A stretch of 64,000 nucleotides of DNA. Origin: Stegostoma tigrinum (Eukaryota). The notes beneath the pieces were generated by a model, which saw only the letters and a list, made by a program, of their open reading frames with translations, did not search any database and was not told the origin of the DNA. This document shows, in pieces, positions 1-60,209 of this stretch. A program made the translations under genes and the position numbers. The stretch covers positions 11,262,867 to 11,326,866 of the forward strand of contig NC_081387.1 of NCBI RefSeq assembly GCF_030684315.1. The letters run 5' to 3'. Positions within the stretch are counted from its first letter, which is position 1. Each line of letters begins with the position of its first letter.

Positions 1-62
1 TGCGCACTATTCACTGACCATCATTCTAACCTTGCCTGTTCTTTGTATAGACTTTCGCACAG

Positions 63-191
63 GTAATGAGGGGAACAGCACAGCCGAGTCCAAGTCAAAT
101 ATCTCTCTTTTTGTGTTTGCAATGGCGGTGGAGTTGTCTCTCCTGTTCATCATGGTGGTTCTCGTCATTGTCATGCACTGCCAAAAGACTG
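63..191 (+). CDS. NCR3: NCR3/NKp30-like receptor copy 1, transmembrane exon (upstream exons outside window)
   Basis: Acceptor cgcacag| at 62, donor |gtaaca at 192, phase 1-1, 129 nt. Encodes GNEGNSTAESKSNISLFVFAMAVELSLLFIMVVLVIVMHCQKT. Same length and boundaries as the TM exon of copy 2 (53207-53335). Confidence 0.8.
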
Positions 192-221
192 GTAACAATC
201 CGAATTTGTGTGCCTGTGAGT

Positions 222-815
222 ATCATAGTCACATCATCGGACAGCACCGAAACAGGCTCCCAATTCCGCTCGCCCATGTCAGCCAGGTTTTCCACACTAA
301 ACTAATCCTATTTGCCTCATTTTGGCCCATAGCCCTCGAAGCGTTTGCTGTTCATGTCCCTGTCCAAATGTCTTTCCAGTGTTGTAACTGCAGCACTTCC
401 TGCTGGCATTTCATTCCGTATGCGCATCACCCTCTGTGTTTACAACGATGCCCCCTGCAGTCCCGCTCGATGGTTTTCTCCTCTCATTTTAAACCTATGC
501 CGTCTAGTTGTGAGCTCCCTTTCTGTAGGGAAAGTACCTTTTTAGTATCCTTGCCCCAGTAGACGAGACGTATGCAGTTCTCCAAAAGTGTTCTGTACAG
601 CCACAATATGACATCCCAACTCCTATACTCCACGCACTGACCAATGAAGTCAAGTATGCCAACTGACTTCTTCATCTCCCTAACTGCCTGCGATCCCACT
701 TTCAAGGAAGTATATGCTTGAATCCTTTCTGGTCTCTGTTCCATAACACTCCCCAAGGCCCTACCATTCACTACGTATGTCCTGCCCTGGCTTGTCTTAA
801 CAGGATACAACATCT
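222..815 (-). mobile_element. CR1-type LINE 3' fragment (intronic)
   Basis: Minus-strand ORF 484-813 contains FIGQCVEYRSWDVILWLYRTL, the CR1 ORF2 C-terminal motif seen in other copies in the window. Confidence 0.75.
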
Positions 816-1105
816 CATTGTCGGGGTATGAACGGTGCTAACTTTGCAAGTTTTAACCTGTAAGTCGGCCAGGTTGAGTTGGAACGCTGGCTATAAACTC
901 CCCGAGCCCGTTCACTGATTCGCTTTGAATTGGGAGTCGTGTTGTGGCCCTGGGTGGCTGAAAGCAGCACAGCCTCCCTCACATTGGGCTATTTCTCAAG
1001 AAGGGAGTTCAGTCAACTTGGACGACACATTATGTCAATAAGGAGTGAACTTAATTATGGGCTCAGAAATTTAATAATTCTGTTCCCACTTTCCTTTCTC
1101 CACAG

Positions 1106-1273
1106 CCACTCCTCAGCAACCCGAAAGGTAACCGGCTGGATAGAGTCAGTTATTTGATGCCCGATCTGGTATTTCGCTTGTTATCTGTGATTTCTTCAAC
1201 ATCTCACTTCCCTGCTGTACATTTTATTTTTGCTGCAGGCCAGTTCCCCTGTACGCAGAGATGTATAAAGGAG
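1106..1273 (+). CDS. NCR3: NCR3-like copy 1, cytoplasmic micro-exons 1106-1127 (ATPQQPE) and 1239-1273 (RPVPLYAEMYKG)
   Basis: Splice signals tttcctttctccacag|...aag|gtaacc and tttttgctgcag|...gag|gtgagt. Sizes 22 and 35 nt match the paralogous exons at 54258-54279 and 54392-54426, and the phases are compatible. Confidence 0.7.
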
Positions 1274-1710
1274 GTGAGTAACACAGAGAAATATGCATAA
1301 TATCTCGGTTTATAGATTGAATTTGACTTCTCTTTGATGGGGTGGCTAATTGTATCTTTTGATAGTTCTAATCTGAAAATCTGTCAGAAACTAGAGATTA
1401 ACGATGACTTGGAGAATGCCAAGGGGTCATATAGATTTTCTCTCTTAACTCGGCGAATCACTGTTATCTGGAATACATTGACTGATGGGGAAACATGAAA
1501 TACGATAAGAGGAATTTTCGCCGAGAAATAGATGTTTCAAAGGAGGCGAGTTGCAGGATTCATTGGGAAAAAAGTAGCAAATTGGGCTTGATTGGCAGCA
1601 CTTTTATGTTGCATCCTATAATATTACGGTGTCGGGTACTGTATTTTAATGTATAACCTTAAGTGGAGTTTGTTGAATTATACGATATTAATCGCTTCTC
1701 TGTTGCCTAG

Positions 1711-3636
1711 AGACAGGGTGTCTAGTGTTCGCTCTGAAAGCAGAAGAACCGACCTGATACATAACTCCAATTATAACATCAGTGAACTTGGTAACTTGGT
1801 TGTCAATATTTCCAGCTAGTTTGTAGCCATTGTCATTGTGCAGATGGAGATAAAGAAGCGAAGACTCTTGTAGCACAGTCATAGAATACCCCTGGTTTAA
1901 CAGGTCTGGGATCTAGTCCCACCTGCTCCAGAGGTATGTTGTCGCCTCTCTGAGCAGATTGGTCCAAACACATCTGGATAAATACGCAAAGCTCGGGGTA
2001 CCGCTTGCTGTTTATGATGATGTGTGAGATTTTTCAGCTTGCTCCGCTGACTTGCATTGTGTTCCTTTCCAGAGGCAAGTTTCAGGCAGAGCTACAGAAA
2101 ACTGGCAACAAGTAGAAATATCGGAATTCAACAGAGGGCAGTCAAGGAAATGTGTGAAATGAAAGCGGAATGGTCCAGGAATCAACAAAAAACAGAGGGC
2201 ACTCAGGTTTGAGATGAGGAAAGACCGCTTCACGAAGGGTGTTGCATATCAATAGTTTTCTCTTGTCCCGATAGTTCGGTCAATGAGTTGATTAGAGACG
2301 GAGATCGGTAGATGATTCAGCTCTTGATAAACCAAAGAGCATGGTTGGTGGGAAAAGGAATTGATGTCGTTGGCCTAGACGTTTGTACCAACATGCACCG
2401 ACGTGCTATTACAGATATCTGGGATGCGATGGGACTTGTACTGAAGTCGTCTGCCCCAGAGATTGGGACACTCCGAATGTCTCATAGGCTCTACCATCAT
2501 CAACTGCTTCATCAATGACCTTGAGAGCTCATCAAATGCTCTCAGAATTTAATGGGCCACTGGACCCGAAGCGTTAACTTTGATTTCTCTCCACAGGCGC
2601 TGCCAGACCCACTGAGTATTTTCTCTCTATTTCTGTTTCTGTCTCAGTATTTGTTCCGTTGTCCATCTTCCATGTTTTGTTCTCGCTGTTGTTTCCATTA
2701 AGGCCGAGATCAAACTCGTCTTTGCTGTCGCAATTCAGCGTCTCGTCTGTTAAATTTTAATGGTTTCTTCCTAACTCACACGTCTGTTATCTGTTTAGCG
2801 ATTAATCACTTCTTTCATATCCGATGAAGCACATGCAAACGCTCTTGTTTATCAAATATTGTCTCTTGTTCTTATTCTGATTCCAGAAAGTATTTCTCCA
2901 ATCTCTGCATCAAGTCTCTCGTTATTTTTTTTCTGCTGTGAGTTCCAAGATCAGTTTTAAAGAGATGATACTTTGAGTCTCAGTCCTGAGTGCCTGCACT
3001 CCAGTGATCTTGGTTTCAGTGTCCTTTTAACTCGTATTTGACCTCTTGAGTCACTTCGAATGTACTTGCAGGTTGGAGGTTATTGATGTTGCTGAACAGC
3101 GTGTCTCAGGTTGCGTTTTGAACGCTGCACTGTTGCTGACTCGCGGCTCTATACTCGATTTGCACCAGTTCACGCCAACGCTTTAACCTCAATAGGACGA
3201 CGACGGGATCCAATACACCGGGAGCAATGCGCAGGAGGACAGTCGATGTGAGGGCCCGGTGAATGACAGACAGTGACCGTGGGCGCAGTGAAGAAAAAGC
3301 GGCAGAAACGATTCAGCTTTGTGAAACACCGCCAGGGGGTGATAGATGAAGCTCTTCCCCCACCTCTCCCTCCCACCACCACCCAGTGATCTCGCCCTTA
3401 ATTTCTCTGGAGACTCTGCCAGGCGGCCGAAGTTGGAGTGCTGGTGTTGCAGGGAATTGTTCCCCAGTCGAACAGCTTCTGAGTGAGTTCCATCCGTTTG
3501 CGCACATGTTGCAAGGACTTGCAAACTGAAATATATGTAACATTTAGACCGCTCGGTATGAGTTGTAAAATCTTGCTGCCTTTGCTCGATATGTTTTCAC
3601 CCTCACTTTTGAACGGTATCGTGCCACTCAAATAAA
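1711..3636 (+). other. NCR3-like copy 1, degenerate distal tail exons (1711-~1757 and from 3196) and 3' UTR with AATAAA at 3631-3636
   Basis: Homologous to copy 2 exons 55027-55067 and 56597 onward. The 1711 exon is 5 nt longer, has lost its GT donor (ctg|atacat) and reads ETGCLVFALKAEEPT*. The last exon has a 1-nt deletion relative to copy 2. The polyA signal is conserved in both copies. Confidence 0.55.
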
Positions 3637-5289
3637 CAGGTCGAAGCAAATGCTAAAAATACAGTGAATGTCTTCTATGTTCGCCCTCGTCCGTATCCAC
3701 ATGCACCCAGTTTCGGTCCACAACTCCTCAGGCTTCTTTTTAAAAAAATCTAATTTGAAAATAAAACGGGGAGAACTGAAGGACGGTCTACCTGTCCCAA
3801 ATGCCTGTCTGAAGGAGACATTCTGGCATCTGTGTGACAACACCTCTGTGTAAGAGAAACGGCACAGAACCACCTCTCTCCGAAAGGCACAGTACTGTCA
3901 CATGTTGTCAACCTTTTCTTTCCTCTTTGCTATCATTCAGTTTTGAATATGTGTCTCTCTTTGGCTCCTAAAGAGTGGGAGAGAGAGAGATATTCAACTC
4001 AGAGATCATAATGCCAGTATTCCTCATGACTAAGATGCTGATGTTTTAAGGATTTCGAAACTATTATTCCCGACACCACTGGGTCCAATCCTTCCCTCCC
4101 TCGAGACACTGACATTAGGGCCACCAGCAATGACAGGCCCGTGTGAGGCATGTTTTAACCAATCTGCACAAGAGGTGTTAGTGCATACCCTTGGAGCAGG
4201 TGCGAGCTGAACACATCTTTTAGCTCAGAGGCAGTGACGGTCACATTGTGCCACAAAAACGCTCATCTCCTTGTGAAGTTAGTGACGTTGCAGGACTGGG
4301 TGGTGATGTTATTCCTCTTTGTGGCGTCAACGATGACGCAGGGCGCCAGGAACACCCACATCCGGATGACGTAGAGAGTTGTCATCAATGAGGTAGAGAA
4401 GGTCTAACATCAGTGTGATAACGAGGGGACCAGTGGGAGTCAAGGCAGGTCGATTGGGCTGAATGGCTTACTCCTGTTCTTGTACATCTGCGTTCAACTG
4501 TTGCCTGGTTCACAGTAGCCCTTCAAGTTAGGAAACCTGCAGTCCTTGTCTGGCCTGCCTAATGTGGCTCAAGCCCCACAATAACGTGGGTGTTTCTGAA
4601 GGGCCCTCTGAAAATGTCCGGACTAACCCATCAGAAAAGGGCAGCAAATACTGGCATTTGAACCTATGCAAGAATACCACGAATGAGTAAACTAAAAGTT
4701 ATGAGCTCCCATCCCAGGGAGTCTGCACCCCAAAGTATATCACCTCATCTGATGCATTTGAGGACGGGCAGGGAAATGGAGTTAGGCTACACCATCTCAT
4801 CGGGTAAGATCTCATTGAATGGCAGAACAGGCAGAAGGGGCTGGATGGCCACCTCCCGTTCTTATGTTGCAAATGCTTGCTGTGTGCAAATTTCCGCTGG
4901 GCCTAAAATACTTGGCGGGGGTGGGGTGGGGGGAAACTCATAGGAGTAACGTGATTTGGGAGGGTCTGATTCACCAGACAAAACAAAGAATTTTGGGAAA
5001 ACTGAGCAGGCCAAGCAGCATCTATGGAGAGAGAGAGAGAGAGAGGGAGAGAAAGAGCGAAAGTTTCGAATCCAGCAACCGATCCTCAGAATTGGTAACA
5101 ACAGCTGTCTCAACTTAAATACTGAGTTCCGTGACTGAGGAATCAAGGACTAAAAGCCAGGTATTTTAGTCAAAGTTTTTTTTTGATCTTCAAAACTTGA
5201 AACTTATAAAAGTATCAACGTTGTCCTGAATTATCACAGGAATAAAAACATTCTAACTGAATTTACTGTGACTTTGATATTCCTTCCAA

Positions 5290-8607: not shown

Positions 8608-9181
8608 AGATTGTATAGGATTTTGGTTCAGCCACATTTGGAGTACTGTGTACATTTCTGGCCGCCACATTACCAAAAGGATGTGGATGCTTTGGAGAGG
8701 GTGCAGAGGAGGATGTTGCCTGGTATGGAGGGCTCTAGCTATGAAGAGAGATTGAATAGATTAGGATTATTTTCACTAGAAAGAGGGAGATTGAGGAGGG
8801 ACCTGATTGAGGTCTACAAAATCATGAGGGGTATAGACAGGGCGGATAGCAAGAAGCTTTTTCCTAGAGTGGGGGATTCAATTACTAGGGGCAATGAGTT
8901 CAAAGTGAGAGGAGGAAAGTTTAAGGGAGATATGCGTGGCAAGGTTTTTATACAGAGGGTGATGGGTGCCTGGAACGCGTTGCCAGTGGAGGTTGTAGAC
9001 GCAGACACGTTAGCATCTTTTAAGATATATTTGGACAGGTACATGGATGGGCAGGGAGCAAATGGACACGGACCGTTAGAAAATAGATGACAGGTAGGAC
9101 AGAGGATCTTGATCGGCGCAGGCTTGGTGGGCCGAAGGGCCTGTTCCTGTGCTGTAGGTTTCTTTGTTTCTTTGTTTCTTT
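8608..9181 (+). mobile_element. Young CR1 LINE 3' end inserted in an older CR1 (8240-9860)
   Basis: ORF 8590-9090 LYRILVQPHLEYCVHFW...LGLFSLERGRLRRDLIEVYKIM...WNALP, with a (TTTCTTTG)n 3' tail. The older flanking copy has KFADDTK. Confidence 0.9.
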
Positions 9182-9912: not shown

Positions 9913-12641
9913 TTAGTTGTTCGCATTTGCTTTATTAGTCAATTGAATAATTAATGCAAATGGATAATGCACTGCATTTTTCAAATGCTGTCTGAACCTG
10001 GACTGAGTCACCCCATAAATGAATGCATTTGTACAAGAACTTATTTCCGTCAGCATAACTCCTACCTGTTGGAAAATATATAAAGATTCATTGTAGTTCT
10101 GTGGATTAACTCCAGCAATGTTATAATATAAGAAGTTTAGAACACATAAAAACCACAGGAGTATGAAACTGCCAGATATGGCGAAGAGTAAAATCATAGG
10201 CTTTCTCCTGCTTTCCATTTCTGGGTCAGGGTGATCCTCTGTCTTGCTCTGATTCATCAGTCTCTTACGGACTCGACTTGTCCCTAAAATATGTCTGACT
10301 GTGAGAGCATTTAATAATAAAATTAAAACAAATGGGATTGATGGGGTTAAAACCCTATCAAACCAACTAAATGCTACCCAACCAGGATCACTATAATAGC
10401 TTGGCTTTGTATTACAAAACCAGGGAACATTATCAATTTCTTTTACAGGTTTGTATACAAAGTAAAAAGGCATGTTTTTAAAACAGAACAAAATAAATGT
10501 TGTTCCTAGAACTACAACCACAGTTTTCTTGGTGCAGTATTTTATTTTCAGCTTTCGATGACAAATGGCCACAAAACGGTCAAAGGAGAATGCGATGGTG
10601 AACCAGACAGAACAGTCTCTCTATATATAAAACAGGACAATGAGGCTACGACATACAGGTGTAATGCTCAAAAATGATCCTGGAAAGTAATACAAGCTGA
10701 CCCATAAGAGTATGAACTCAAGGATAGTGTACTGTAGATCTGCTGTTGCCATGCTCACAAGGTAGCAAGTGGTACAGGTGGAAAGGCCACATTTTCCACA
10801 GGATAAGATCAAAATTGCCACTAAATTAGCTGTAAACAAGAGAAAAGAAAGGTGATTACTGATCAGATGTTCTCTTTGTTGGAGTCCAGTGAGCAAATAC
10901 AGGATGCCTAGCACTCCATGTGGGTTGGGCTTTAGGGAACACTTTCAAAATTCTCTAACCTGATTGCAGTGAGTTTTCATCCGGGATCACTCGAGTTAGT
11001 ATATGGGATGGACAAACACCAATGCTGAGGAGGCACATTGCCAGTTTATGTATTTTATTGAAGCTATGTTCCTCATGAAGAATAGCAAAGCAATCATGGT
11101 TTAAATTTAGTACATCTGCAGAAATCAGTGATACAAGGGGAGAGATGTGTCTCGGTAGAGGAGTTTCAAAGTGGTGGTATGTAGGCTCATCAAGTGATTC
11201 AGCAGGAAAATGAAATTTTAGAGACAATCGTAGATGAATGGAGTGTCAAAAAGGGAAATTTCATCCAAGCGAGGTTTCTGTGTATAATTTTGGTCTCCTT
11301 CTCTAAATAATGTAATTATATTACAAGCAGTTCAATAAAAGATTGACTTGACTGATTCCAGGTTGAGCAGGTTGGCCAATGTCAGCTGGAGTTTAGTAGA
11401 AGAAATGATGAACCTATTAAAACATACAGTCGCTCCAATGTTCCACACACAGTGACCGGTCTCAGAGTGCTGATTAGGGCATTGACTCTGGTTCTGGAAC
11501 TCACTGCCATGTCAGACCTCAGAGCCCCGCCCACATCTGTGAAGAAAATTAGAAGGAATGCTGATTGAGGAGATATTTCATCTTCTGGTCAAGCGTGGAA
11601 CAAAGGGACACAGTTTCAGAAAGAGTGGTCTTTGATGTAGATCTCGGATAGGGAGATTTCTTTTAGTCTGTAGAATTCTCTTTTCTCCAGAGAACAGCTG
11701 AGGCTGGATTATTCACTACATTCGAGGCTGATTTTGAGAATTTTGTGTTGAAAATGGATTCTACCTGGTGTGGATAACAATGAAAGCAGAGTTGAGAACA
11801 TGACACATCATGTGTGCATTCTTCAACATATGATAGCTGAGTTCAATGGTGTGAAGTCTCTACCTCTTCTTGATTTAGGATGTAATCTGGTCTGTAGCTT
11901 AAATTCTGGACAGCAAGCTTTTACCTATTTTATTTCACACCTTCTTGTTTCACTCCATTTCATGACCCACTTGCGAGACAATTTGATATTGACTGGGTAT
12001 AATCACCATTTTCCGAATGGACCATAGGAATGTCATCCCGTCAGAGAGAGACAACCGATAGCTATTTAATCTGAGTGCCCCATACCTCAGGCAAAGGAAA
12101 AGGTTGAGAAGGATGGTAACCTCAGCAGGTGCCGGAATTGAACGCACACTGTGGGTGTTAATCTGCATTGCAAACCAGCCACCCAAGCTAACAAACCTTC
12201 TGCATTGACTCATGCTCCCAGTGATAATGTGTTCACTGTGTCAGAGGTTCTACTTGGATGAATGATCCCCATGAAGGATAATACTGCAGTGACTGACGCT
12301 CCCAGTAATACTTCCCCTCGGCAGTTCTAATATACTGAGTGTTCCACAATGCATAATAATTCGGTGAGCTTTTGCAGAACAGATATGTTTATTCTCATTT
12401 TAAGGATGGAATAAAATCAAAAGGCTATTTCAGGAAATTTGAGTTTAAAAAAAAATCATTGATTAGGGTCTGCAGAAAGTCACTGTTCAATCAGAATGCT
12501 ACATTATGAGCCATTGATTGAAAATCTGAGAGTAGCTCTCCCATGCATTTACACACTGTCAATGCTCTTTGTCACTTACCAGGAACGCCGATGATTGAGA
12601 GCCATGTAATACATTTTCCTGAAGTTGTTAAATGTTTCCAT
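9913..12641 (-). pseudogene. GPR139-like: GPR139/GPR142-like class A GPCR pseudogene (exon 1 12641-12580, exon 2 10829-9913)
   Basis: Exon 2 reads ANLVAILIL...MATADL...PVC...FSFDRFVAIC...SSCTNAFIY with an in-frame TAG at 10623-10621 in TM3. Exon 1 (METFNNFRKMYYMAL/IIGVP|gtaagt) carries a frameshift. TATAAA at 12706-12701. Confidence 0.85.
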
Positions 12642-22268: not shown

Positions 22269-24649
22269 TCACTTTTGAATGAGAGTGAAGGGATATTTGA
22301 GGGCACGCAGTAGCTCCTGCCTGAACTTACTCTGGGTCACTGCATAAATGGCCGTGTTAGTGCAGCAGCTCAGAAGCTGAAGCATAATTCCTACTTTTTC
22401 ATAAATTTCGTAAGGGCTAAGTAGAGATGTGAGAAGAAAAAAATATGTCATTCTATAATACAGGAAATAAGTGACAGTTGTGATCCAGAGCAGGATAAAG
22501 CTGCCAGATATTGCAAACAGTAAAATGATGGACCTTTTACGATTCTTCATCTCAGGGTCTCTGTCATTGCTCCTGTGGACACGGAGGTTCATCCGCGCCT
22601 GACTGGCCGCTAAAATATACCTGACAGTGAGGATGTTCAAAAGCAAAATCAATAGGAATGGAAGAATGGGAGTTAACAGCTGTTCAATCCAAGAAAAAGC
22701 CATTGCTGCAGTTTGAAAGTGAACCACTGGTGATACAAAGCAACCCCGTGCTATGTTGTTCACTCGCACATGGGGAATGTACAAGAAGGCCCAGGGAATG
22801 TTCTTTAAACAGAAGAACAAGCTCATTGTAATTGTCACCACAAAAGCAGTTTTCACTGTGCAATATTTGGATTTTATCTTGAGACAGCAAATGGCTACAA
22901 AACGATCAAAGGTAAAGGCGACTGTGAACCAAACAGAAATGTCGATGGCAGTCGAAGAGAGGAACAAAATTACTCTACAAACGGAAGTGTACAGCAGCAG
23001 GGAGTCCCACCAATAAATCACGGCAATCCGATATAACGTTACGTTAAAGACAACCACCATGAAATCTGCTGTCGCCATGGCTACCAGGTAGTGAGAGATG
23101 CATTTGGAGAGATCGCATTTCCCCTGACTCAGGACCACAATTGCGACCAGGTTCACTGTGACAAATAGAAAAGAAATCAGTTACGTAAGAGGCTGGGGTG
23201 AATGATAATGCGTAAAATGCCATGGCATTGTCATTTTATTTTCTCTCTGTGTTCTGATCTTCTCTGTTGTAGGTGCTAGTCATGTTGGTAGAACGAATTT
23301 GCCATGACTTACCGGGGCAGTGCTGAAACCACTTCCTGAAGTCTTTATTAATTTTATAAGGTCCACAAAGATTCCTCAATTGATTCAATCTCTGGACCCA
23401 GGTTGACAGAAAGCGCACTGACTTCACAGATTGGAGAGAGAGAGAAAGTGTGCTCCTGCATGTTGGAGAGCAAACGGCTTGACTGAATCTTACTCCTATC
23501 TCTAAACTGTGCAGTCACTTGAAAAAATAAACACAGGCCTGTTTTCAGACAGAAGACATTTGTCTTTGTGCATCTGTCAGTAATCCATAATCTAATCTGC
23601 TACTTTACCAATCAACACTTCATTTGTATGCAACCTCTAGGCTCCAGTTGCAAACACTGCTGCATCTAACAGCTACACAAGTAGTACACACAGTGAAAAT
23701 CAAATTATTCCCTTTCTGTACACATCGATATTCATGGTTATTAGAACCCTGAGACGTAGTAGGAGTATCAATTGGGTCAACCTGTTTGGCTCGGCATTCA
23801 ATCAGGACACAGCTGATCTGATCACCTTCAATTCCGTGTTCCACACTGTTCCTCATGGGCCTTGATGTGCACAGTCTTTTCAAATTGAAGAGTCACATTG
23901 GGCATCTGGGCCAATTATTTTTTGTTTGAGTCTTGAGGTTATCTCCCTCTAGCCAACTACAATCCAGTAGCAGAGGTAAAGTTGGACAGCACTGAGCATA
24001 AATCTGAGCAGGAGAGAGTCAACACTCGCAGGAGTTAGAAAAGCTCTATGATTAGGCTAATGAGTGTGTGGTTAAAAGCAGATTTTTTTTAAAAAATTGG
24101 TACAATAAGTAAAATAAGAACGAAGGCAACAACCAAAATGAAAAGGAGTGGGAGAGGAGAGGTGAGATGCCTCAGATAGTGTATTAGAGAAGAAATTAAG
24201 GTTAGAGATATTAGAAGACAGTCAAACTAAGCGCAAAACTTTGCAAAATAAGACAATATCAAGATTCAAAATGAGTAAGAACTTAAACAATACTGTGATG
24301 GGATTGATCAAGAGTGGTGACGTAACTGAGATTTAAAGAGAATAGAAAAAGAGTAATGACTGATGATAAGTGAATGTAATCTTGTTTGCATTATGATGAA
24401 TTTAATCTATTGAGAGAAGGCAACACCAATGAAAAGAAATTGTGAGGGGGAAGACAAACTGTTCTGAAAGTGAAATCAATTTCTATAATGGAGATGGCTA
24501 AGTGAGAGCAATGCTCACGGATTTAGAAATCAATACAATGCCACCACTGGAACAAATTTCACAAGTATGTAGCACTTACCAGGCACTCCAACTCCAGCAA
24601 GGATAGGATAGTATATGGATGCAACCAGAGACATTTCTGTCCAAAACAT
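22269..24649 (-). CDS. GPR139-like: GPR139/GPR142-like class A GPCR, intact, 2 exons (24649-24580, 23155-22269), 318 aa
   Basis: Exon 1 MFWTEMSLVASIYYPILAGVGVP|gtaagt splices in phase 1 to cacag|(V)NLVAIVVL. Seven hydrophobic segments, MATADF (TM2), FTFDRFVAIC (TM3), ECL2 Cys and SCCTNTAIY (TM7). Confidence 0.92.
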
Positions 24650-32700: not shown

Positions 32701-33385
32701 GGGGGATGGGGGGAGGGAACTGGAATAAATAGGGAGAGAGGGGGAGGCGGACCGAAGATGGAGAGTAAAGAAGATAGGTGGAGAGGGTGTAGGTGGGGAG
32801 GTAGGGAGGGGATAGGTCAGTCCAAGGAAGACGGACAGGTCAAGGAGGTGGGATGAGGTTAGTAGGTAGCTGGGGGTGCGGCTTGGGGTGGGAGGAAGGG
32901 ATGGGTGAGAGGAAGAACCGGTTAGGGAGGCAGAGACAGGTTGGACTGGTTTTGGGATGCAGTGGGTGGGGGGGAAGAGCTGGGCTGGTTGTGTGGTGCA
33001 TTTGGGGGAGGGGATGAACTGGGCTGGTTTAGGGATGCAGTAGGGGAAGGGGAGATTTTGAAACTGGTGAAGTCCACATTGATACCATATGGCTGCAGGG
33101 TTCCCAGGCGGAATATGAGTTGCTGTTCCTGCAACCTTCGGGTGGCATCATTGTGGCAGTGCAGGAGGCCCATGATGGACATGTCATCAAGAGAATGGGA
33201 GGGGGAGTGGAAATGGTTTGCGACTGGGAGGTGCAGTTGTTTGTTGCGAACTGAGCGGAGGTGTTCTGCAAAGCGGTCCCCAAGCCTCCGCTTGGTTTCC
33301 CCAATGTAGAGGAAGCCGCACCGGGTACAGTGGATGCAGTATACCACATTGGCAGATGTGCAGGTGAACCTCTGCTTAATGTGGA

Positions 33386-34726
33386 ATGTCATCTTGGGGC
33401 CACTTCCTACAGACTAAGGGGGTGGCCATGGGCACCCGCATAGGCCCCAGCTATGCCTGCCTCTTTGTAGGTTACGTGGAACAGTCCCTCTTCCGCACCT
33501 ACACAGGCCCCAAACCCCACCTCTTCCTCCGGTACATTGATGACTGTATCGGCGCCGCCTCTTGCTCCCCAGAGGAGCTCGAACAGTTCATCCACTTCAC
33601 CAACACCTTCCTCCCCAACCTTCAGTTCACCTGGGCCATCTCCAGCACATCCCTCACCTTCCTGGACCTCTCAGTCTCCATCTCAGGCAACCAGCTTGTA
33701 ACTGATGTCCATTTCAAGCCCACCGACTCCCACAGCTACCTAGAATACACCTCCTCCCACCCACCCTCCTGCAAAAATTCCATCCCCTATTCCCAATTCC
33801 TCCGCCTCCGCCGCATCTGCTCCCACGATAAGACATTCCACTCCCGCACCTCCCAGATGTCCAAGTTCTTTAAGGACCGCAACTTTCCCCCCACGGTGAT
33901 TGAGAACACCCTTCACCGCGTCTCCCGCATTTCCCGCGACACATCCCTCACACCCTGCCCCCGCCACAACCGCCCCAAGAGGATCCCCCTCGTTCTCACA
34001 CACCACCCTACCAACCTCCGGATACAACGCATTATCCTCCGACACTTCCGCCATTTACAATCCGACCCCACCACCCAAGACATTTTTCCATCCCCTCCCC
34101 TGTCTGCTTTCCAGAGAGACCACTCTCTCCGTGACTCCCTTGTTCGCTCCACACTGCCCTCCAACCCCACCACACCCGGCACCTTCCCCTGCAACCGCAG
34201 GAAATGCTACACTTGTCCCCACACCTCCTCCCTCACCCCCATCCCAGGCCCCAAGATGACATTCCACATTAAGCAGAGGTTCACCTGCACATCTGCCAAT
34301 GTGGTATACTGCATCCACTGTACCCGGTGTGGCTTCCTCTACATTGGGGAAACCAAGCGGAGGCTTGGGGACCGCTTTGCAGAACACCTCCGCTCAGTTC
34401 GCAACAAACAACTGCACCTCCCAGTCGCAAACCATTTCCACTCCCCCTCCCATTCTCTTGATGACATGTCCATCATGGGCCTCCTGCACTGCCACAATGA
34501 TGCCACCCGAAGGTTGCAGGAACAGCAACTCATATTCCGCCTGGGAACCCTGCAGCCATATGGTATCAATGTGGACTTCACCAGTTTCAAAATCTCCCCT
34601 TCCCCTACTGCATCCCTAAACCAGCCCAGTTCATCCCCTCCCCCAAATGCACCACACAACCAGCCCAGCTCTTCCCCCCCACCCACTGCATCCCAAAACC
34701 AGTCCAACCTGTCTCTGCCTCCCTAA
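33386..34726 (+). CDS. Penelope-like RT (C-terminal half) plus GIY-YIG endonuclease, uninterrupted but N-truncated
   Basis: QTKGVAMGT and FLRYIDD (RT), LTFLDL, Cys-rich linker CNRRKCYTC, NVVYCIHCTRCGFLYIGET..RFAEH (GIY-YIG), GIN. The ATG comes from the inverted arm. Confidence 0.88.
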   Translation: MSSWGHFLQTKGVAMGTRIGPSYACLFVGYVEQSLFRTYTGPKPHLFLRYIDDCIGAASCSPEELEQFIHFTNTFLPNLQFTWAISSTSLTFLDLSVSISGNQLVTDVHFKPTDSHSYLEYTSSHPPSCKNSIPYSQFLRLRRICSHDKTFHSRTSQMSKFFKDRNFPPTVIENTLHRVSRISRDTSLTPCPRHNRPKRIPLVLTHHPTNLRIQRIILRHFRHLQSDPTTQDIFPSPPLSAFQRDHSLRDSLVRSTLPSNPTTPGTFPCNRRKCYTCPHTSSLTPIPGPKMTFHIKQRFTCTSANVVYCIHCTRCGFLYIGETKRRLGDRFAEHLRSVRNKQLHLPVANHFHSPSHSLDDMSIMGLLHCHNDATRRLQEQQLIFRLGTLQPYGINVDFTSFKISPSPTASLNQPSSSPPPNAPHNQPSSSPPPTASQNQSNLSLPP

Positions 34727-37553: not shown

Positions 37554-38936
37554 TCACTTACAAATGAGAGTAAAGGGATATTTGAGGGCACACAGCAGCT
37601 CCTGCCTGAACATACTCTGGGTCACTGCATAAATTGCCGTGTTAATGCAGCAGCTCAGAAGCTGAAGCATAATTCCTGTCTTTTCGTAAGTTTCGTAAGG
37701 GCTAAATAGAGATGTGAGAATAAAGACATTTGTAATTCGATAATGTAGGAAATATGTGACTGTTGTTATCCACAACAGGATAAAACTGCTCGATATTGCG
37801 AAGAGTAATATAATGGACCTTCTGCGATTCTTCATCTCAGGGTCTTTGTCATTTTCTCCATTGCTCCTGTGGGCCCAGAGTTTCTTTCGTGCCTGACTGG
37901 CCACTAAAATGTGCCTGACAGTCAGGACATTCAAAAGTAAAATCAGGATGAATGGTAGAGTGGGAGTTAACAGCTGTTCAATCCAAGAAAATACCATTGC
38001 TGCAATTTGAAAATAAATTACTGGTGATACAAAGCAGCCCCATGGTCTATTGTTCACGAGAGCATAAGGAATGTACAAGAAGGCCCAAGGAATGTTTTTT
38101 AAACAGAAGACCAAGGTCAATGTGATGGTCACCACGGTAGCAGTTTTCTCTGTACAGTATTTTAATTTTAATTTCTGACAAGAAATGGCTACAAAACGAT
38201 CAAAGGTAAAAGCAACTGTGAACCAGACAGAAATGTCGACAGCAGTTGGAGAAAGGAACAAAATAAATCTACAAACTGGAGTGTACAGCAGCAGGGAGTC
38301 CCACCAATAAATTGCAGCAATCTGATGTAATGTCACATTGAAGACAATCACCATGAAATCTGCTGTCGCCATAGCCACCAGGTAGTGAGTGATGCACTTA
38401 GAGAGACCACATTTCCCTCGACACAGGATCACAATTGCCACCAAGTTAACTACGAGAAAGAGGAAAGATAACAGTAAGAAAACAGTCTGTAGTTGACAAT
38501 AATGTAGCAACTAGCATGGCAATTAGCATCATATTTTATCTTTCTGTTATTGTCTTCTCTACTGAAGCTGTTAGTTACCTTGGTGGAATAAACGTGTCCT
38601 GACTCACTAGGGTGGCGCACAAGTTAAGCCCATTGCTCCTGGAATCTTTCCAACCATTACAAATTTCATGAAGCCTACAAGGATTCCCCAACTTACCTGT
38701 TTTTTGATCCAAATTGACAGAAAGCATGGGCCAAGTTTCTGTACTTAACAATATTTGCTGCTATTAAAAATTAAATAGAGCCAAGACACAGGTGCATAGT
38801 TCAAAACCAGAGCCATACAATGCTACTACTTAAAATTTTAATACAAATATAACTTAGCCTCATGTGGATGCAGAGATGTGCACAGACACACACATGCAGA
38901 CACAGGCACACATAGACAGGCAGAGAGACAGGCGTG

Positions 38937-50057: not shown

Positions 50058-53000
50058 ATGTACTGCATTACAGTTACCTGGATCACCGCTGTACTCTCAG
50101 GTAAGCAGGTTAAGACATGGATTGGCACAAGGCTCGCACTAGCATGCATGATGTATTCTCAAATTTTTGCCTTTTTTGAAGCCGAGGCACCTTAATATCT
50201 TGGGGCTGCAGTTAATACATGCTGCCTGATCAACACGAACATATCTCCAAACGGAAATTCACTGAGGCAGTTGCTTTACAGAGACGCTTTGCAGTGACTT
50301 ATGGTGAACTGAAGTGTTTAATTGAAGGGCTAACAGCGCAAAGGAAAATACAGCGTCGATATTGGAAATGGTAGGATAGGCAAAAGATGAGTCAAATATC
50401 ACTGGTTAAGATGAGCAAGGAGTTGAGGATAGTCCTTGATACATAGGCGCATCGAGAAAAGGAATGAGAGCAGTGAATTGTTCTCCTATATACCCAGTCT
50501 CAGTGAATGAATAGCCGCTTTCTCCGCCGTAGGATTGCAGGATGCTTTTCATCCAACAGAATCCAAATATGCCCTATTCCTTACAACTTAGGGTGGGAGA
50601 GATGCAGTGCTGCTGAATGTAAGCAAGCACATTGCTCGATGGTTTTCTGCGCAACCCTGATTAACTGGAGCCGTTTAAGGGAACAAATACAGATGCAGAA
50701 AATAGGGGCAGGTGTCGGAGTTCGACCGCTGTAGCCTGCTCCACCATACATTCTGTTCGTGGCCAATTACCTAACACAACGGCCTGCTCCTGCTATAACC
50801 CTATATGTTTCACTCCTTTTAGACCAAAGTGTATATCTAATTCCTTTTTGAAAACAGTTGATGTTTTGGCCTCCGTTGCTTTCTGTGGCACAGAATTCCA
50901 CAGGTTCACCGCTCTCTGGGTAAAGACGTTTCTCCTGTTTTCGATGCTAAATGGACTACCCCGTATTCTCAGACTGGGACCCTGATTCTGGCCTCGCCAA
51001 CTGTCGGGAGTACCCTTCCTCGTTTACCATAATATCTAGTCCTGTTTCTATGAGTTCCCTCCCACCATCTCTTAGTTCTTAGTTATAATCCTAACACAAC
51101 CTTCCCCTAGTTCTTCATTTGAAGTCATAGATGTGCACTGTCTCCGACATACTAAACATTTCCTTGACCAGGCATTTACGAAAATTGATAAACAGTTCTG
51201 AACGAAGCGTTCACAGGTCATTTATTGTGCCTAATGCGCCGTTCAACGCCTGGTAATATCTCTACATGAAAGGAGGAAATTTGTTTAACTGGGATAGTAC
51301 TCCTCAGTAGCACGGTGATGCGGGCGAGGAGACAGTTTTGCAGTGGTACGCAGATCGCATAGTGCCCATTTAACACTATCGATCTGAACAGAAGCAGCTT
51401 CCAACTGGAAGGTACATGCATCACGCTGGTGAAATCCGAGATGGTTTTATTTTCTGTTTGGGATTACTTCACTCTTCTTAGTTATATGAAAAAAAAAGAA
51501 ATGATACTTTGTCGGGGACAACCTGAAACTTGAGTTAGCTTATGAGATTCGGACGAACATCAAGTTGCAACATAGAAATGGGATCCATTATCAGAAGAAT
51601 TTAACGATAACCATCACGTGGAGCAAGTGATAGGTCTTGAATGTGCCATGATAAGCATAATTTGGATTAAAACTGGAATTAAATAATGTGTTTTTAGAAA
51701 AGAAAAGGAATGCAGTTTTTTTGAAGTTTGTCTTACCCACTTACAGCAGTTGCTGTTGGAAATATCACAGTTATTCAGAGCCCGGACTCTCTCACCAAAA
51801 CGCCGGGCCAGACAGCGCGCCTGGGCTGTACGTATCAGGGACCCAGCGGCATCGGCAGCTACACGTGGCACCGGGGGAACAAGCGGGGGAATGAAGTCTC
51901 CAACAACACAGCGGAGTTCCGAGGCCGGGTGTTGGCGGCGGGCCAAGGGGATTTCAGGGACAGGAGAGACGCCTCGATCAGAATCGTTGATCTGAAACCG
52001 GAGGACACCGGGTTCTATATCTGCGAGGTGGCTTTCATGGGAATGCGGGAAGCCTATGGAGCAGGGACCACACTGACAGTGACGCGGGGTAAGTGCGGGG
52101 CAGCCGAGTTATTCCTAACGAAACAATATGGACCTAATCATGGAAATTCATTCCAGTAATGTATTTCTTTTCGTCTTTAGGCAAACTATCCACTCTGTTA
52201 ACCCAAACTGCTATCTCTACAGTAACGACATCAACCTCAGGTACCCCTTCAATTACCACACTATCCGGGCTTGGAATGATCAATATCTTGCAGTACCTGA
52301 CTCAAAATCCTGTTATGCCCTCCCTAATAAACACTGTAGGTGTGTAAGAACAGATAAACCACCGTGTTGAGGCGGAAACAAGGAGTTCGAAACTGTCCCA
52401 CCGTGTAATGACATTATAGCTGATCTGTAAAATAACGTCATATATCTGTCTTTGGTATTTAACCTTTGCATAACAAAAAATACTCCCTCAGATTTAAATT
52501 AACAGCAGATTTAGCATCCACTACAGTTTTGTGTGGAGAGCTCCAAATATCTACCACCCTTTGTATGTAGAGGCGCTTCCTGATATCTCTCCTGAACGGT
52601 CTGGCCTCAGTCTCAGACTATGCCCCTTAATTCCAGAAAACTCGCTCAGTGGAAATAGTTTTAATCAAGTGGCTCGTCATCTTCAGAAGGAAGCCGCTTT
52701 AGAGGTTCACAATGAATACTGAACTTCTCAGCGGTGGCTGAATTCCCCAGAAGTAATGATTGAGATTATTAAAATTGGATTTCAAACAGTTTTGGGCAAT
52801 CGTTTAACAAGTAATCGGTCATTGGGTGCAAGTGGGGAATTGGAATGCTAACGAGGGCAATAGATGGGACTTGGGGTATTTCAGCGGGTGAAATAACACC
52901 CGGCAACCAATGGCCCGAAACTGATAGCAGTGTCTTAAAGTTCCTGAATTAACGTCCCGATTGTGCCCCCTGAAGAATTGGAAACTCTCCTTTCGGCCGC

Positions 53001-56000
53001 TATGTCAGTTTATGTTTTCAATCGATGATTAAGTTCGATCAAGGCCAATGAAAAATATTAGTTATGGGCTCTGACAGTTAACGATTCTGTTATCACATTC
53101 CTTTCTCCACAGCCATTCCTGCGCACCACACAGAGTTGAAACGTTGCGCACTATTCACTGACCATCATTCTAACCTTGCCTGTTCTTTGTATAGACTTTC
53201 GCACAGGTAATGAGGGGAACAGCACAGCCGAGTCCAAGCCAACTGTTTCTCCATTTGTGTTTGCAATGGCGGTGGTGGTGCCTGTCCTGATCATCATTGT
53301 CGTGACAGTTATTGTCAAATACTCCCGAAAGACTGGTAAAAAAAATATTAATTTGCCTCAGTATGTCGTAGAATTATACGCGATGGAACCAAACCTTTTA
53401 GTCCACTCTTCCACGCCAACTGGTTTACCAAACTGAACTCATCCCATTTGTCCACGTTTGACTCAGAATACTTTAAATCTTTCCTGTTCACGTTCCTGTC
53501 GAAGTGTCTTTTTAAGTATCGTAACTATACCTGCATTTACCGCTCCCTCTGGTAGTTCATCCCACATAAGAAGCACTCTCTGTGTGAAACGCTGCCCCTC
53601 CGGACCCTTTTAATTTTTTTCCCTCTCACATTAAACCTGTGCCCTCTAGTTTTCAACTCCACTACTCTCGGGTAATGACCTTTACATGTTCTTCCTTTTA
53701 ATGTTCTGGACGACCAGAACTGTATGCCATACTCCAAAAGTGGCCTCACCGACGTCCTGTCTAATGGCAACATGACATCCCAATACATCGAAAACTCAAG
53801 GCTCTGAGCGATGAAAGTGAGAGTGCCAAACGCCTTCTTCACCACCCTCTCTATCTGCTCCGTCAGTTTCAAGGAAACATGTACCTGAACCCCTCGCTCT
53901 CTGTGTTCCACACGGCCTTGCTATTAACTTCGTAAGTCCTGTTCTGGTTTGTCTTACTAAACCTCGCGTATTGTCATTACGAGCGACACTAACTTTGCAA
54001 GTTTTCACCTTATAAGCCGGCCAGGCTGAGTTGGAAGGCCGCCTATAAACGCGTCCGATTCTGCTCATCTGTTGCTTTGAATTGAGAGTAGAATTGGGGC
54101 TTTCGGTGAGTGAAAGAAGCGCTGCCTCCTTCACGCCAGGCCATTAGCCAGTTTCAGCTGATGTGGTTAATGTGTCGGACACATTATATCTGTAAGAAGT
54201 AAACTCAGTTATGGGCTCTGACAGTTAACGAACTTTATCACATTCCTTTCTCCACAGCCATTCCTGAGCAACTCGAAAGGTAACTGGCTACAATAAAATC
54301 CGTTATTTAATATCCAGACTAGCATTTCCTTTGTTGTCTGCGTTTTCTTCAACATCTAACCTCCGTGCTGTCCTTTTATATTTTGTAACAGGTCAAATCC
54401 CCTATATGCAGACATCCATGACAGAGGTGAGTAACGCAGGGAAATATGCGTAATATCTCATTTGAAACAAATACTGGTTTAATGCAGTGATTTCGACTTC
54501 TAATTGATGGCGTGGTTAATGGATTTACCTGTAAATTATAATCTGACAATCTGTCAGGAACTAGAGCAGAAAGATTCATGACGACTTGGAAAAAGCAAAG
54601 AGAGAACCTGTGGATTTTCTCTTCTTTCTAACTCAACGAACCACCATGATCAGGAATACATTGGCTGGTGGGAAGGCTGGTGGATGACGACGAGCTAAAC
54701 ATTCACTGTGAAACAGGCGTTTACTTGAAAGGAGACCAAGTGCAGGATTAAATGGGAAGTGGCACTGATCGGCAGCACCCCCAGAGGGTTAGCCTGTGCA
54801 GGACTGGCCGAATGACCTCCCTGGGCTCGACTGATTGTATAATCCAAGAGCCCTTGCTCCCAGCCTGTCATTCAATAAGAAATATTTGACATTGCCGTTT
54901 ACAAGCATGCTGCTTTCAAATAAGCCATGTTGTATCGGAATTATAGCGCCAGATGCTATATTTTACTGTATAAGTTCAGTCAGGTGTATCAAATTAGACG
55001 ATACTAATCCCCTCTCTGTTTTCCAGAGACCAATTCTGCTCGCTTTGAATGCAGAAGAACCGATCTGGTATGTAACGTTAATTACTCAATGATTCAACTT
55101 GGCGAGCTGCTTGTTAATATTTCCAGTTAGATTATAATTATCGTAATTGTGCAGCTCGAGTTAAAGAAGCGAGACTCTTGTAGCACTGCCTCGGAATACC
55201 TCTGGTTCAGAAGATCTGGAACCTTGCCCCACCTGCTCCAGAAGTGTTGTAACCTCTCTGAACAAATTGGTCCAAACACATCTGGATAACTAAGGAAGGT
55301 TCGGGGAGTAGATTGGTCTCTCTGGGAATGGGTGTGAGATTTTCAGCTTTCCACACTGGCTTGCATTGTGTCCCTTTCCCAAGGCAAGTTGCGAGCAGAG
55401 CCGCGGTATTGGCAACGAATAGAAGTATCGGAATTCAACAACGGGGAGCCCAGGGAATGTGTGAAATGGAAAACTGAGAAGGATCCAGAATTCAAAAGAA
55501 AAAGAAAAAGCTCGTTTGAGATGAGGAGAGAGTTTTTCACAAGGAGTGTTGCAACCTTCGGGTGGCATCATTGTGACACTGCAGGAGGCCACCGGATTTC
55601 TCTAGCCCAGATTGTTCGCTCAATGAGTTCATCACACACTGAGATCGGTAGATTAGTCAGATCGTAAGGACGGAAGAGGGCATGGTGGGCGGGAAAACGG
55701 ATTTGACGTATCCAGGTTTTTAACCGACCCGTTCAGGCATGCTATTACACAAGTCTGGGATTAGATGGGATTAGAAGTAGGGTCTCCTTGCTCAGAGCTT
55801 TGCACACTACCAATATGGCGTGGACCCAACCACCGTCAACTGCTTTATCAATGACCTTGGAAGCACACCTAGTTATCTCAGTGCGTGAATGGTCACTGGA
55901 CCCGAGATGTAGTCTCTGATTTCCCTCATAAGACCTGTTGACATTTTCCAGCAATTTCTGTTTCAGTCTCTCAGTATCTATTGGGTGTACAGAAAGTGGG

Positions 56001-56635
56001 TGTTTTTGTTTTGCGACAATGTACTGTGTATTCGTAATTCTGTCTTCCATTGAAGCGTGTCTAGTTCTAAACTCTACCACGTTTTGTTCTCGTTATTTTG
56101 GTCCTAAAATAAGCTCTGGATCAAACTTCGCTGACACGTTTCAGCATTACAACTGTTAACTTTAAGGGGTTAATTTTAGCTGAAATTGTGCATTAGCTGT
56201 TTTGCAATCAATCTCCTTATTATACCCTTTGAAGCAAAATCAAACGCTCTTGTTTATTTCAAGGGCTTAGCAGATATTGTCTCTCGTTACTACTTTAAAC
56301 CAGACTGCTTTTCACCAACCTCTGCTCCAAATGCATCGTTACTTCTTTCTGCTGTCGTTTCCGAGCATACTTTTAAATAGATGACTCTGCCGTCCTGAAC
56401 GATTGCGTCCCCTGTTCTTGATTTTAACGGTCGTTTATTGAATAATTGACATATAGAGTCACTTTGATTGTGCGGAGGATGGTGTTATTTGCTTGAACAG
56501 CGTGTCTCAGGTTGTGTTTTAGACCCTATACTATGTTTGACTCGTGGTTCTGCACTCGATTTGCATCTGCTAATGCGAACGCTTTAACCTCAACAGGGCG
56601 ATGGTGAGGCTCTGTACACAGAGATCAATGCGTAG
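50058..56635 (+). CDS. NCR3: NCR3/NKp30-like Ig receptor copy 2, 8 coding exons (50058-50100, 51747-52088, 52181-52240, 53207-53335, 54258-54279, 54392-54426, 55027-55067, 56597-56635), ~236 aa
   Basis: All junctions are GT-AG with compatible phases (sum 711 nt). Signal peptide MYCITVTWITAVLS/AVAVG, V domain, S/T stalk, TM, and tail AIPEQLERSNPLYADIHDRETNSARFECRRTDLGDGEALYTEINA*. The stalk exon could alternatively end at 52339. AATAAA at 57032-57037. Confidence 0.75.
51747..52088 (+). CDS. NCR3: VJ-type Ig V-set exon of the NKp30 family
   Basis: LGCTY...IGSYTWH...EVSNNTAEFRGRV...DASIRI.DLKPEDTGFYICEV...YGAGTTLTV mirrors human NKp30 motifs (IGSVTWF, EVRNGTPEFRGRL, GNGTRLVV). Phase 1 splice sites ttacag| and |gtaagt. 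Confidence 0.92.
53365..53960 (-). mobile_element. CR1 LINE 3' fragment (intronic); further CR1 pieces at ~49060-49855 and ~50680-51100
   Basis: Minus ORF 53537-53911 VVKKAFGTLTFIAQ...VRPLLEYGIQFWS...TRGHRFNVRG. Confidence 0.8.
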
Positions 56636-57261
56636 GTAGGCAGTCGATCGAAGACCCTGGTGAGCAAACAAACGGTGGTGTACGCCACAGTGAAGAAAGA
56701 GCGGCAGAAACCATCCATTCCTGTGAAAGATCGCCACAGGGCGATAGATACAATCTCCTAAGACATTCCCCCGCCTCTCCCACCAGCAATCACCCGGTCT
56801 TTCTCCGTTAATTCCGACAGAAACTCTGGATGGCGCCTGGAGCTCGGGTGCTGGTGAGAGAAAATTGCCACTACTTGTCCCCCTTGCTGAGCGAGCTCCG
56901 TCCGTTTACGAACCTGTTGCAAGGACTTGCCATCTATTGAACATTTAGGCTGTTAGTTGTTAGTGGTGAACTTTTGCCGCCTTCGTATGAGATACCTTCA
57001 CCCTCCTTTTTGAGCGGTGTCGTGCCACTTAAATAAACAGGTTGAAGCAAATGTTAGAAGTGCAACCAACATCCTGAGTGTTCATGCTCGTCGCTATCCA
57101 AATGCACCCTGTTTCGTGACATAGACCCACCAGCATAATCAGAATCCGGGCGCTATTGATAGTTCCTAACATTCCCTGGCAGTCGAGCCAAGTTGTCCTT
57201 TTGTCAATTACTGCTTTGTTTAAAATGACAATCTTAAATTCAGTTTAACGGAAGGGCACTC

Positions 57262-59036: not shown

Positions 59037-60209
59037 TAATGGGAACTGCAGATGCTGGAGAATCCAAGATAACAAAGTGTGAAGCTGGATGAACTCAGCA
59101 GGCCAAGCAGCATCTCAGGAGCACACATTCCTCACACCCCGCCCCCGCCACAATCGCCCCAAGAGGATCCCCCTCGTTCTCACATACCACCCCACCAACC
59201 TCCGGATACAACGCATCATCCTCCGACACTTCCGCCATCTACAATCCGACCCCACCACCCAAGCCATTTTTTCATCCCCACCCCGTCTGCTTTCAGGAGA
59301 GACCACTCTCCGTGACTCCCTTGTTCGCTCCACACTGCCCTCCAACCCCACCACACCCTGCACCTTCCCCTGCAACCGCAGGAAGTGCTACACTTGCCCC
59401 CACACCTCCTCCCTCACCCCCATCCCAGGCCCCAAGATGACCTTCCATATTAAGCAGATGTTCACCTGCACGTCTGCCAATGTGGTATAGTGTATCCATT
59501 GTACCGGGTATGGCTTCATCTACATTGGGGAACCCAAGCGGAGGCTTGGGGACCGCTTTGCAGAACACCTCCGCTCGGCTCGCAATAAACAACTGCACCT
59601 CCTAGTCGCGAACCATTTTAGCTCCCCCTCCCATTCCTCAGACGACATGTCCATCATGGGCCTCCTGCAGTGTCACAATGATGCCACCCGAAGGTTGCAA
59701 GAACAGTAACTCATATTCCGCTTGGGAACCCTGCAGCCCGATGGTATCAATGTGGACTTCACAAGCTTCAAAATCTCCCCTTCCCCCACTGCATCCCACA
59801 ACCAGCCCAGTTCGTCCCCTCCCCCCACTGCATCACAAAACCAGCCCAGCTCGTCCCCTCCCCCCACTACATCCCAAAACCAGCCCAGCCTGTCTCCGCT
59901 TCCCTAACCTGTTCTTCCTCTCACTCATCCCTTCCTCCCACCTCAAACCACACCTCCATTTCCTACCTACTACCTCATCCCGCCTCCTTGACCTGTCCAT
60001 CTTTCCCGGACTGACATGTCCCCTCCCTACCTCCCCACCTATACTCTCTTCTCCATCTTCGGTCCGCCTCCCCCTCTCTCTCTATTTATTCCAGAACCGT
60101 TTCCCCATCCCCCTCTCTGATGAAGGGTCTAGGTCCAAAACGTCAGCTTTTGTGCTCCTGAGATGCTGCTTGGCCTGCTGTGTTCATCCAGCTTCACACT
60201 TTGTTATCT
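59037..60209 (+). mobile_element. 5'-truncated, decayed Penelope family A copy with short inverted 5' arm
   Basis: Linker and GIY-YIG region with stops. Inverted arm 59037-59124. TSD aggaatttcatggga at 59022-59036 and 60210-60224. The hammerhead core is mutated (GAAA to AAAA near 60137). Confidence 0.9.

Follow-up and report, generated by a model that had tools for sequence, protein, structure and literature searches.

The locus raises the question of what kind of receptor is encoded by a gene of the NCR3 (NKp30) family that has an uncharged membrane anchor and a tyrosine-bearing tail spread over several exons. The gene lies in a window of Stegostoma tigrinum DNA (the whole stretch of 64,000 nucleotides that was analysed; contig NC_081387.1, positions 11,262,867 to 11,326,866 of the forward strand). 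In the first-pass annotation it was taken for a receptor that signals independently of adaptors, possibly as an inhibitory or endocytic receptor. Judged from its sequence, this MHC-linked shark gene, with its uncharged anchor and a stop codon before the ITIM, is read here with moderate confidence as probably derived from an inhibitory receptor of ITIM type and since disarmed. What is new is that a stop in the last exon removed the ITIM; no new mechanism is involved.

Gene model and splicing

Splicing by coordinates of eight GT-AG exons with compatible phases resulted in an open frame of 240 codons, reaching from the ATG at 50058 to the TAG at 56633-56635. The features of the gene and of its tandem copy are listed by position in the window.

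1..3715, + strand: broken tandem copy, transmembrane (TM) and tail exons; its leader, V and stalk immediately precede the first window position (L020)
50058..50100, + strand: exon 1, leader, 43 nt, phase 1; the N-termini of P0002 (nurse shark) and P0004 (bamboo shark) align
51747..52088, + strand: exon 2, single unsplit VJ-type Ig domain of NKp30 type (Pfam, PDB, tree)
52181..52240, + strand: exon 3, Ser/Thr-rich stalk, 60 nt; shared with nurse-shark P0002 but not with the bamboo-shark models
53060..53125, + strand: near copy of 54207-54270, which spans the splice acceptor and the start of tail exon 1
53195..53335, + strand: exon 4, membrane-proximal stalk and TM (TM 53254-53316)
54258..54279, + strand: exon 5, tail micro-exon c1, 22 nt; segment also in P0002, P0004, P0005 and P0001
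54392..54426, + strand: exon 6, tail micro-exon c2, 35 nt, with NPLYADI (54396-54416)
55027..55067, + strand: exon 7, tail micro-exon c3, 41 nt; segment also in P0004
56597..56635, + strand: exon 8, coding part, with ALYTEI (56609-56626) and TAG (56633-56635)
56636..56761, + strand: vestigial tail past the stop, 41 open in-frame codons, ending with TAA (56759-56761)
57032..57037, + strand: predicted candidate polyadenylation signal, the first AATAAA past the last exon

The donors of the gene model agreed with the consensus at 6-8 of 9 positions. No lesion was found in the first seven exons, and one stop in the last exon is the sole disabling lesion of the coding sequence. Two acceptors have in-frame alternatives. 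In exon 2, a tandem acceptor is located 3 nt further in; in exon 4, a second acceptor at 53207 matches the residue at which the TM exons of the nurse-shark and bamboo-shark proteins start, and the product may therefore comprise 236 rather than 240 amino acids. Skipping of any single tail exon shifts the frame, and skipping of c1 plus c2 or of c1 plus c3 retains it. The near copy of an acceptor at 53060..53125 is missing from the corresponding place of the tandem copy; if used, this candidate would shift the frame and lead to a stop ahead of the TM, giving a product of 180 amino acids.

The structure is not a chance arrangement, because in other sharks orthologous proteins contain these tail exons, spliced in identical frames. 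None of the 15 joints listed (43 in total) matched a predicted exon junction; the four runs were genomic-DNA-like, with contigs crossing the introns, and this result carries no weight for or against expression. The earlier claims of a complete spliceable gene and of tail exons of 22-41 nt were borne out, the latter by the same segments in orthologous shark proteins. The proposed gene end at 56761 had to be corrected: it is a second stop, 41 codons beyond the real protein end. It had also been expected that annotation would miss the small exons; this applies to GenBank GCC38504.1, which appears to skip two of them, but not to the RefSeq models XP_043533718, XP_067865395 and XP_038671257, which include the tail.

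V domain, family placement and chromosomal setting

The exon at 51747-52088 contains the entire V domain with a J-like GxGTxLxV end, and it holds the only V-type motif of the window. It was recognized as Pfam V-set (E 7.5e-15). The four best matches among 703 PDB sequences were all human NKp30 (E 9e-14 to 1.6e-13), followed by a match at 3.9e-10, in agreement with the NKp30-type VJ domain noticed before. Nurse-shark NCR3 QTT61898.1 shares 98 of 110 V residues.

In a V-domain tree of 64 rows, from which 15 rows of the shark's own genome (14 close duplicates, plus one on a long branch) and a row containing stops were omitted, the gene was sister to QTT61898.1 with a support of 96/89, and its end branch was short (0.036). 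The other four species joined them in a starred clade. A wider shark clade took in the second nurse-shark NCR3, QTT61904.1, at 95/79. The V domain fell outside the TCR/Ig-like V rows of its own genome, which had been assigned by visual inspection of their sequences. The phylogeny thus favours the earlier assignment to NCR3, and the gene is likely the ortholog of nurse-shark QTT61898.1. The link to mammalian NCR3 is less firm than this placement with shark NCR3. The 64-row tree did not resolve it; in a 26-row tree built without CD28-family rows, shark and mammal/sturgeon NCR3 were grouped at 92/88, not starred, and a grouping of sharks with SIRP was not rejected (p-AU 0.41).

Matches to MHC class I (PF00129) were found in the genome 34 times, and all 34 were located on the contig of the window (C44). 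The nearest is at 11.148 Mb and the gene at 11.313 Mb, a distance of about 165 kb. A search for MHC class II beta yielded no match anywhere in the genome and was uninformative. With the V domain as query, 16 genome matches were obtained, likewise all on this contig (16/16). The tandem copy has a stop and a frameshift in its V exon, broken donors and a decayed last exon. It is about 65-78% identical to the gene over most of its length and 92-98% identical over V, stalk and the adjoining introns, and this difference suggests recent gene conversion. Another near copy (L004) is interrupted by a stop in its V. A neighbour on the other strand, about 19 kb past the gene, has Arg in its TM exon and a V exon with an identity of only about 38%; a further paralog of the same genome has Lys in its TM. 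For the 77% paralog L002, neither tblastn nor a hydrophobicity scan revealed a TM exon within about 19 kb downstream. An arrangement of this sort is typical of paired-receptor clusters with birth-and-death turnover.

Membrane anchor, tail motifs and the last-exon stop

The TM (53254-53316) contains no R, K, D, E or H and is identical to that of the nurse shark at 20 of 21 residues. As it lacks charge, pairing with CD3zeta/FcR-gamma is not predicted. The uncharged TM reported before was found again, and signalling without ITAM adaptors of the CD3zeta/FcR-gamma type agrees with it. An uncharged TM in shark NCR3 is already known from GenBank, where QTT61898.1 is named NCR3.

About 51 residues follow the TM in the predicted product. 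NPLYADI (54396-54416) and ALYTEI (56609-56626) are present at the places given for them. The translated tail was compared to the canonical patterns (I/V/L/S)xYxx(I/V/L) for ITIM and TxYxx(V/I) for ITSM, and no match to either was obtained, position Y-2 being Pro in NPLYADI and Ala in ALYTEI. As a basis for an inhibitory receptor, the two motifs found no support: neither is a canonical ITIM, and NPxY is shared with the nurse shark alone. A reading of the two remaining tyrosines as an ITAM was ruled out by their spacing of 27 residues, counted on the translation.

NPLY, YADI and YTEI are motifs of endocytic type. YxxPhi is a sorting-signal consensus, and both YADI and YTEI fit it. NPxY occurs in the gene and in the nurse shark only, which is one of the four other species with a model that reads c2 in this frame. 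At the position of NPLY, DPLY is found in the bamboo shark C. plagiosum, DPIN in the horn shark, DRLC in the catshark and VPLY in the tandem copy, the c2 tyrosine being absent from horn shark and catshark.

The only canonical ITIM of the gene, VVYATV (56675-56692), lies 14 codons beyond the TAG. Neither the stop at 56633 nor an ITIM between two stops had been recorded in the first-pass annotation. An open frame of 41 codons can arise by chance (about 11%), and the argument for a vestigial tail thus rests on homology. The segment after the stop is retained in four other shark species (two bamboo sharks, horn shark and catshark). It is identical to bamboo-shark P0004 at 23 of 38 residues, compared with 24 of 45 in the tail before the stop; an identity that is as high behind the stop as ahead of it argues for a recent stop. 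In the column of the stop, Gln is present in the two bamboo sharks and the catshark and Arg in the horn shark, and in the broken tandem copy the codon is CAG instead of the TAG of the gene. A recent change of CAG to TAG would be the simplest account of these sequences.

Each of the four species with a full-length tail has kept both tyrosines of the last exon and one or more canonical ITIMs. The motifs are VQYAEI and MVYAKV in both bamboo sharks, VQYATL and VLYATV in the horn shark (the exon is missing from one of three isoforms), and MQYAQL and VLYATV in the catshark. ALYTEI corresponds to VQYAEI, VQYATL and MQYAQL.

An assembly error as source of the stop was rejected, as TAG was present in all four runs and in both alleles. 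It was unchanged in single bridging contigs of runs X2, X3 and X4, and in run X1 it was carried by both arms of a two-allele bubble (depths 4.4 and 4.7, both under 5), which differ at 56612 and 56637. The runs belong to one study with at most two samples and are possibly the source of the assembly itself, so the stop may be an allele rather than fixed. Two protein searches, returning five and six proteins, contained no relative nearer than the nurse shark.

Under the preferred explanation, the ancestor would have carried two tail tyrosines in ITIM or ITIM-like contexts and would have bound SHP-1/SHP-2. The change of CAG to TAG would have removed the distal motif, and the proximal motif would have lost its hydrophobic residue at Y-2 (VQYAEI-type to ALYTEI). 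A stop located in the last exon should spare the mRNA from nonsense-mediated decay, and the predicted product is a type I membrane protein of 236-240 amino acids. This product would still bind ligand, with phosphatase recruitment weak or none. Since the remaining YADI and YTEI fit YxxPhi, it would most likely be a weak brake or a ligand decoy cycling from the surface, acting beside an activating-type paralog with a TM arginine. Loss of an inhibitory motif is a common type of event in fast-evolving immune gene clusters. Against the explanation, the tandem copy is wholly decayed, and the gene may accordingly be on the same path. Moreover, ALYTEI could still bind an SH2 domain, and only the consensus speaks for phosphatase binding by the ITIMs of the relatives; ITIMs that fit the consensus do not always function, for which NKp44-1 is an example (PMC6514059).

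Competing explanations and known systems

The best of the alternatives, although unlikely, is early decay: the nonsense change abolished the function, and the gene is following its tandem copy towards pseudogene status. Damage affects both ancestral motifs of the last exon, use of the duplicated acceptor ahead of the TM would shift the frame, and the surroundings contain a copy with stop, frameshift and broken donors as well as L004 with its V stop. This is opposed by the first seven exons, which are free of lesions, by the similarity to the nurse shark (V 98/110, TM 20/21) and by the short end branch of 0.036.

Less probable, and doubtful, is a truncated protein that is still inhibitory via ALYTEI, perhaps together with PLYADI, as non-canonical phosphatase sites, which comes nearest to the first-pass annotation. 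The proximal tyrosine and its +3 Ile are retained and aligned with bamboo-shark VQYAEI, and the relatives tolerate Met at Y-2 in one of their two motifs. Neither remaining motif fits the ITIM or ITSM pattern, however, and horn shark and catshark have no tyrosine in c2. For binding, tandem-SH2 phosphatases as a rule require two sites. As a precedent in favour, fish PD-1 has non-canonical ITSMs that may still inhibit, according to a CD28-family paper (PMC11599192).

A broader reading, in which an ITIM-type NKp30 paralog of one shark lineage was re-purposed as an endocytic decoy by gain of NPxY and then shedding of the ITIMs by two routes, within an ancestral MHC family of paired activating and inhibitory receptors whose inhibitory arm was lost by mammals and would be seen here while it is being lost, is improbable. 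As part of that reading, the two routes would be the last-exon stop described here and the intron-retaining end in the nurse shark. A selected endocytic ligand scavenger of the nurse shark and S. tigrinum lineage, in which NPxY was gained and the ITIM exon was then dropped, is very unlikely. NPLY is confined to these two species, and neither the deposited nor the predicted protein extends to the distal ITIM. Yet a single change of D to N creates NPLY, its conservation is limited to two sister species, and the nurse-shark end may merely represent an incompletely spliced cDNA or a partial model.

Least probable of all is continued production of the ITIM by stop-codon read-through or by an alternative splice past the TAG, for which the open frame past the TAG, conserved at 23/38 with a perfect ITIM, the AG of the TAG as an in-frame acceptor position and weak GT donors (5/9 and 6/9) flanking the stop could be cited, but the TAG is followed by G, a context of efficient termination, its AG is without a preceding pyrimidine tract, the allele at 56637 destroys one of the two flanking donors, and a recent stop explains the conservation equally well.

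With respect to earlier work, no description of an ITIM-tailed shark NCR3 was found in a literature search, the likeliest sources (Kinlein et al. 2021, Flajnik 2012, Ohta and Flajnik 2015) being outside its reach, and the searched terms did not occur in the elephant-shark genome supplement (PMC3964593); the class may already have been described in the literature. In PMC12227049, MT914154-161 are cited as nurse-shark NCR3 genes, and NCR3 is treated as a VJ gene linked to the MHC.

When longer proteins were searched, five shark proteins were obtained: QTT61898.1 of the nurse shark, XP_043533718 and GCC38504 of bamboo sharks, XP_067865395 of the horn shark and XP_038671257 of the catshark. Nurse-shark QTT61898.1 is identical to the predicted product at 181 of 212 residues and has the same leader, V, stalk, uncharged TM, c1, and c2 with NPLY. 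In contrast to the gene, which has two more tail exons, it ends after c2 with an apparent read-through into the intron. Onward translation of the intron after c2 of the gene gave the C-terminus DRGE-stop, identical to the end of QTT61898.1. The deposited sequence is therefore without the ITIM exon, either as a retained-intron cDNA or because the lineage ends early, and the subtype may consequently have been taken as motif-poor although its relatives are of inhibitory type. The RefSeq NCR3-like models of bamboo shark (XP_043533716/718), horn shark (XP_067865393/395) and catshark (first half of XP_038671257, whose 469 residues seem to be a fusion of two genes) share the V clade, the uncharged TM and the tail exons. 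They differ in that they continue through the distal motif, with two last-exon tyrosines and at least one canonical ITIM, and have no NPxY. The stop in S. tigrinum is thus a natural loss-of-ITIM variant that can be compared with the bamboo-shark form.

More widely, among 25 proteins whose names were looked up, an ITIM-pattern hexamer after a TM window without Arg/Lys was found in 11, which come from sharks, a ray, sturgeon and lungfish (P0001, P0003, P0004, P0005, P0016, P0027, P0035, P0038, P0065, P0092 and P0132; P0011 was excluded as its hexamer abuts the TM).

Mammalian NKp30 (NCR3) resembles the shark gene in its single IgV domain, as best PDB match, and in its MHC linkage. The human gene is located in MHC class III, and the mammalian receptor pairs with CD3zeta/FcR-gamma through a TM arginine, its tail having no signalling capacity of its own (PMC6514059); isoforms of NKp30 are discussed in PMC12272517. 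The shark gene differs in having neither the Arg in the TM nor the short tail. Mammalian NKp30 is a single activating receptor; the shark NCR3 genes comprise charged-TM forms and uncharged, ITIM-tailed forms near MHC class I, and these two forms bear on the balance of NK-type recognition in early jawed vertebrates.

Paired receptors such as SIRP alpha/beta, long- and short-tailed KIR and teleost NITR are clustered paralogs with either a charged TM and a short tail or an uncharged TM and ITIMs. Their ectodomain exons are homogenised among copies, and truncations and pseudogenes are common. The shark gene differs from these families in its V lineage, SIRP rows forming a clade of their own in the 64-row tree, although the grouping of sharks with SIRP was not rejected. 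As the neighbour with Arg in its TM is only about 38% identical in V, the counterpart is not a near-identical pair. The MHC-linked V genes of Xenopus include both charged-TM and ITIM types.

Tandem copy of the gene and intervening sequence

Besides the NCR3/NKp30-family gene (window 50058-56635), the window and the adjoining part of its contig were found to contain the following sequences.

Window 1-3715 and, outside the window, L020:5457-9998 (together G000:C44 about 11258450-11266580): disrupted tandem copy
Window 9913-10620, 22269-23180 and 37554-38510, minus strand: three extended open reading frames that match Pfam 7tm_1, the rhodopsin-family 7TM receptors
Window 33380-34726, 8578-9090 and 59083-59490, plus strand: frames resembling retroelement remnants

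In the tandem copy the V exon carries a stop and a frameshift, the donors of V and of tail micro-exon c3 are gone, and the last exon is decayed. Identity to the gene is 92-98% over V, stalk and adjoining introns and about 70% in other parts, an unevenness that suggests recent gene conversion between the two sequences. The 7TM receptor frames sit between the gene and this copy. The retroelement-like frames are presumably Penelope-like and CR1-like; a Pfam search of the first two gave no match.

Splicing and the last exon

A near copy of the acceptor and exon start of tail micro-exon c1 was located at window 53060-53125, 82 bases upstream of the TM exon; it is not present in the tandem copy. If this putative acceptor were spliced to, the product would comprise 180 aa without a TM segment. 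The C-terminal residues of nurse-shark QTT61898.1, deposited as NCR3, equal the translation of window 54392-54435 running into the intron after c2, and because of this match the deposited protein may represent an incompletely spliced cDNA without the ITIM exon.

The last exon of the assembly was compared with four genomic sequencing runs of one study, and differences were found at these positions.

Window 56612: Leu/Val, directly ahead of the proximal tyrosine
Window 56637: T/A, 3' of the stop, the A form yielding the Glu codon found in relatives
Window 56728: silent change

Other NCR3-like sequences on the contig

Further NCR3-like sequences were located outside the window (L numbers denote stretches of the same genome).

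L022:1968-2096 and 5839-6180, minus strand (G000:C44 about 11338770-11342980): paralog with Arg in the TM exon
L017:9258-9599 and L018:1561-1937, minus strand: V exon with 77% identity to V of the gene, and a neighbouring V copy with a stop
L025:4654-4992, L025:7433-7795 and L026:211-573: three nearly identical V exons in tandem
L009 and L013-L016 (G000:C44 20.15-20.36 Mb): second cluster, five divergent V exons

The Arg-bearing paralog and the gene are oriented tail to tail, and V of this paralog shows ~70% identity to a bamboo-shark protein annotated SIRP-beta-1-like. For the 77% V exon, which adjoins a V copy carrying a stop, no TM exon was found within ~19 kb downstream; it may be a remnant, or may encode a secreted product. 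The spacing of the tandem V exons (about 2.8 kb) and their near identity suggest either one gene with several V exons or a recent triplication. The second cluster lies ~9 Mb from the gene, and one of its V exons is likely the ortholog of nurse-shark QTT61904.1, with Lys in the TM exon.
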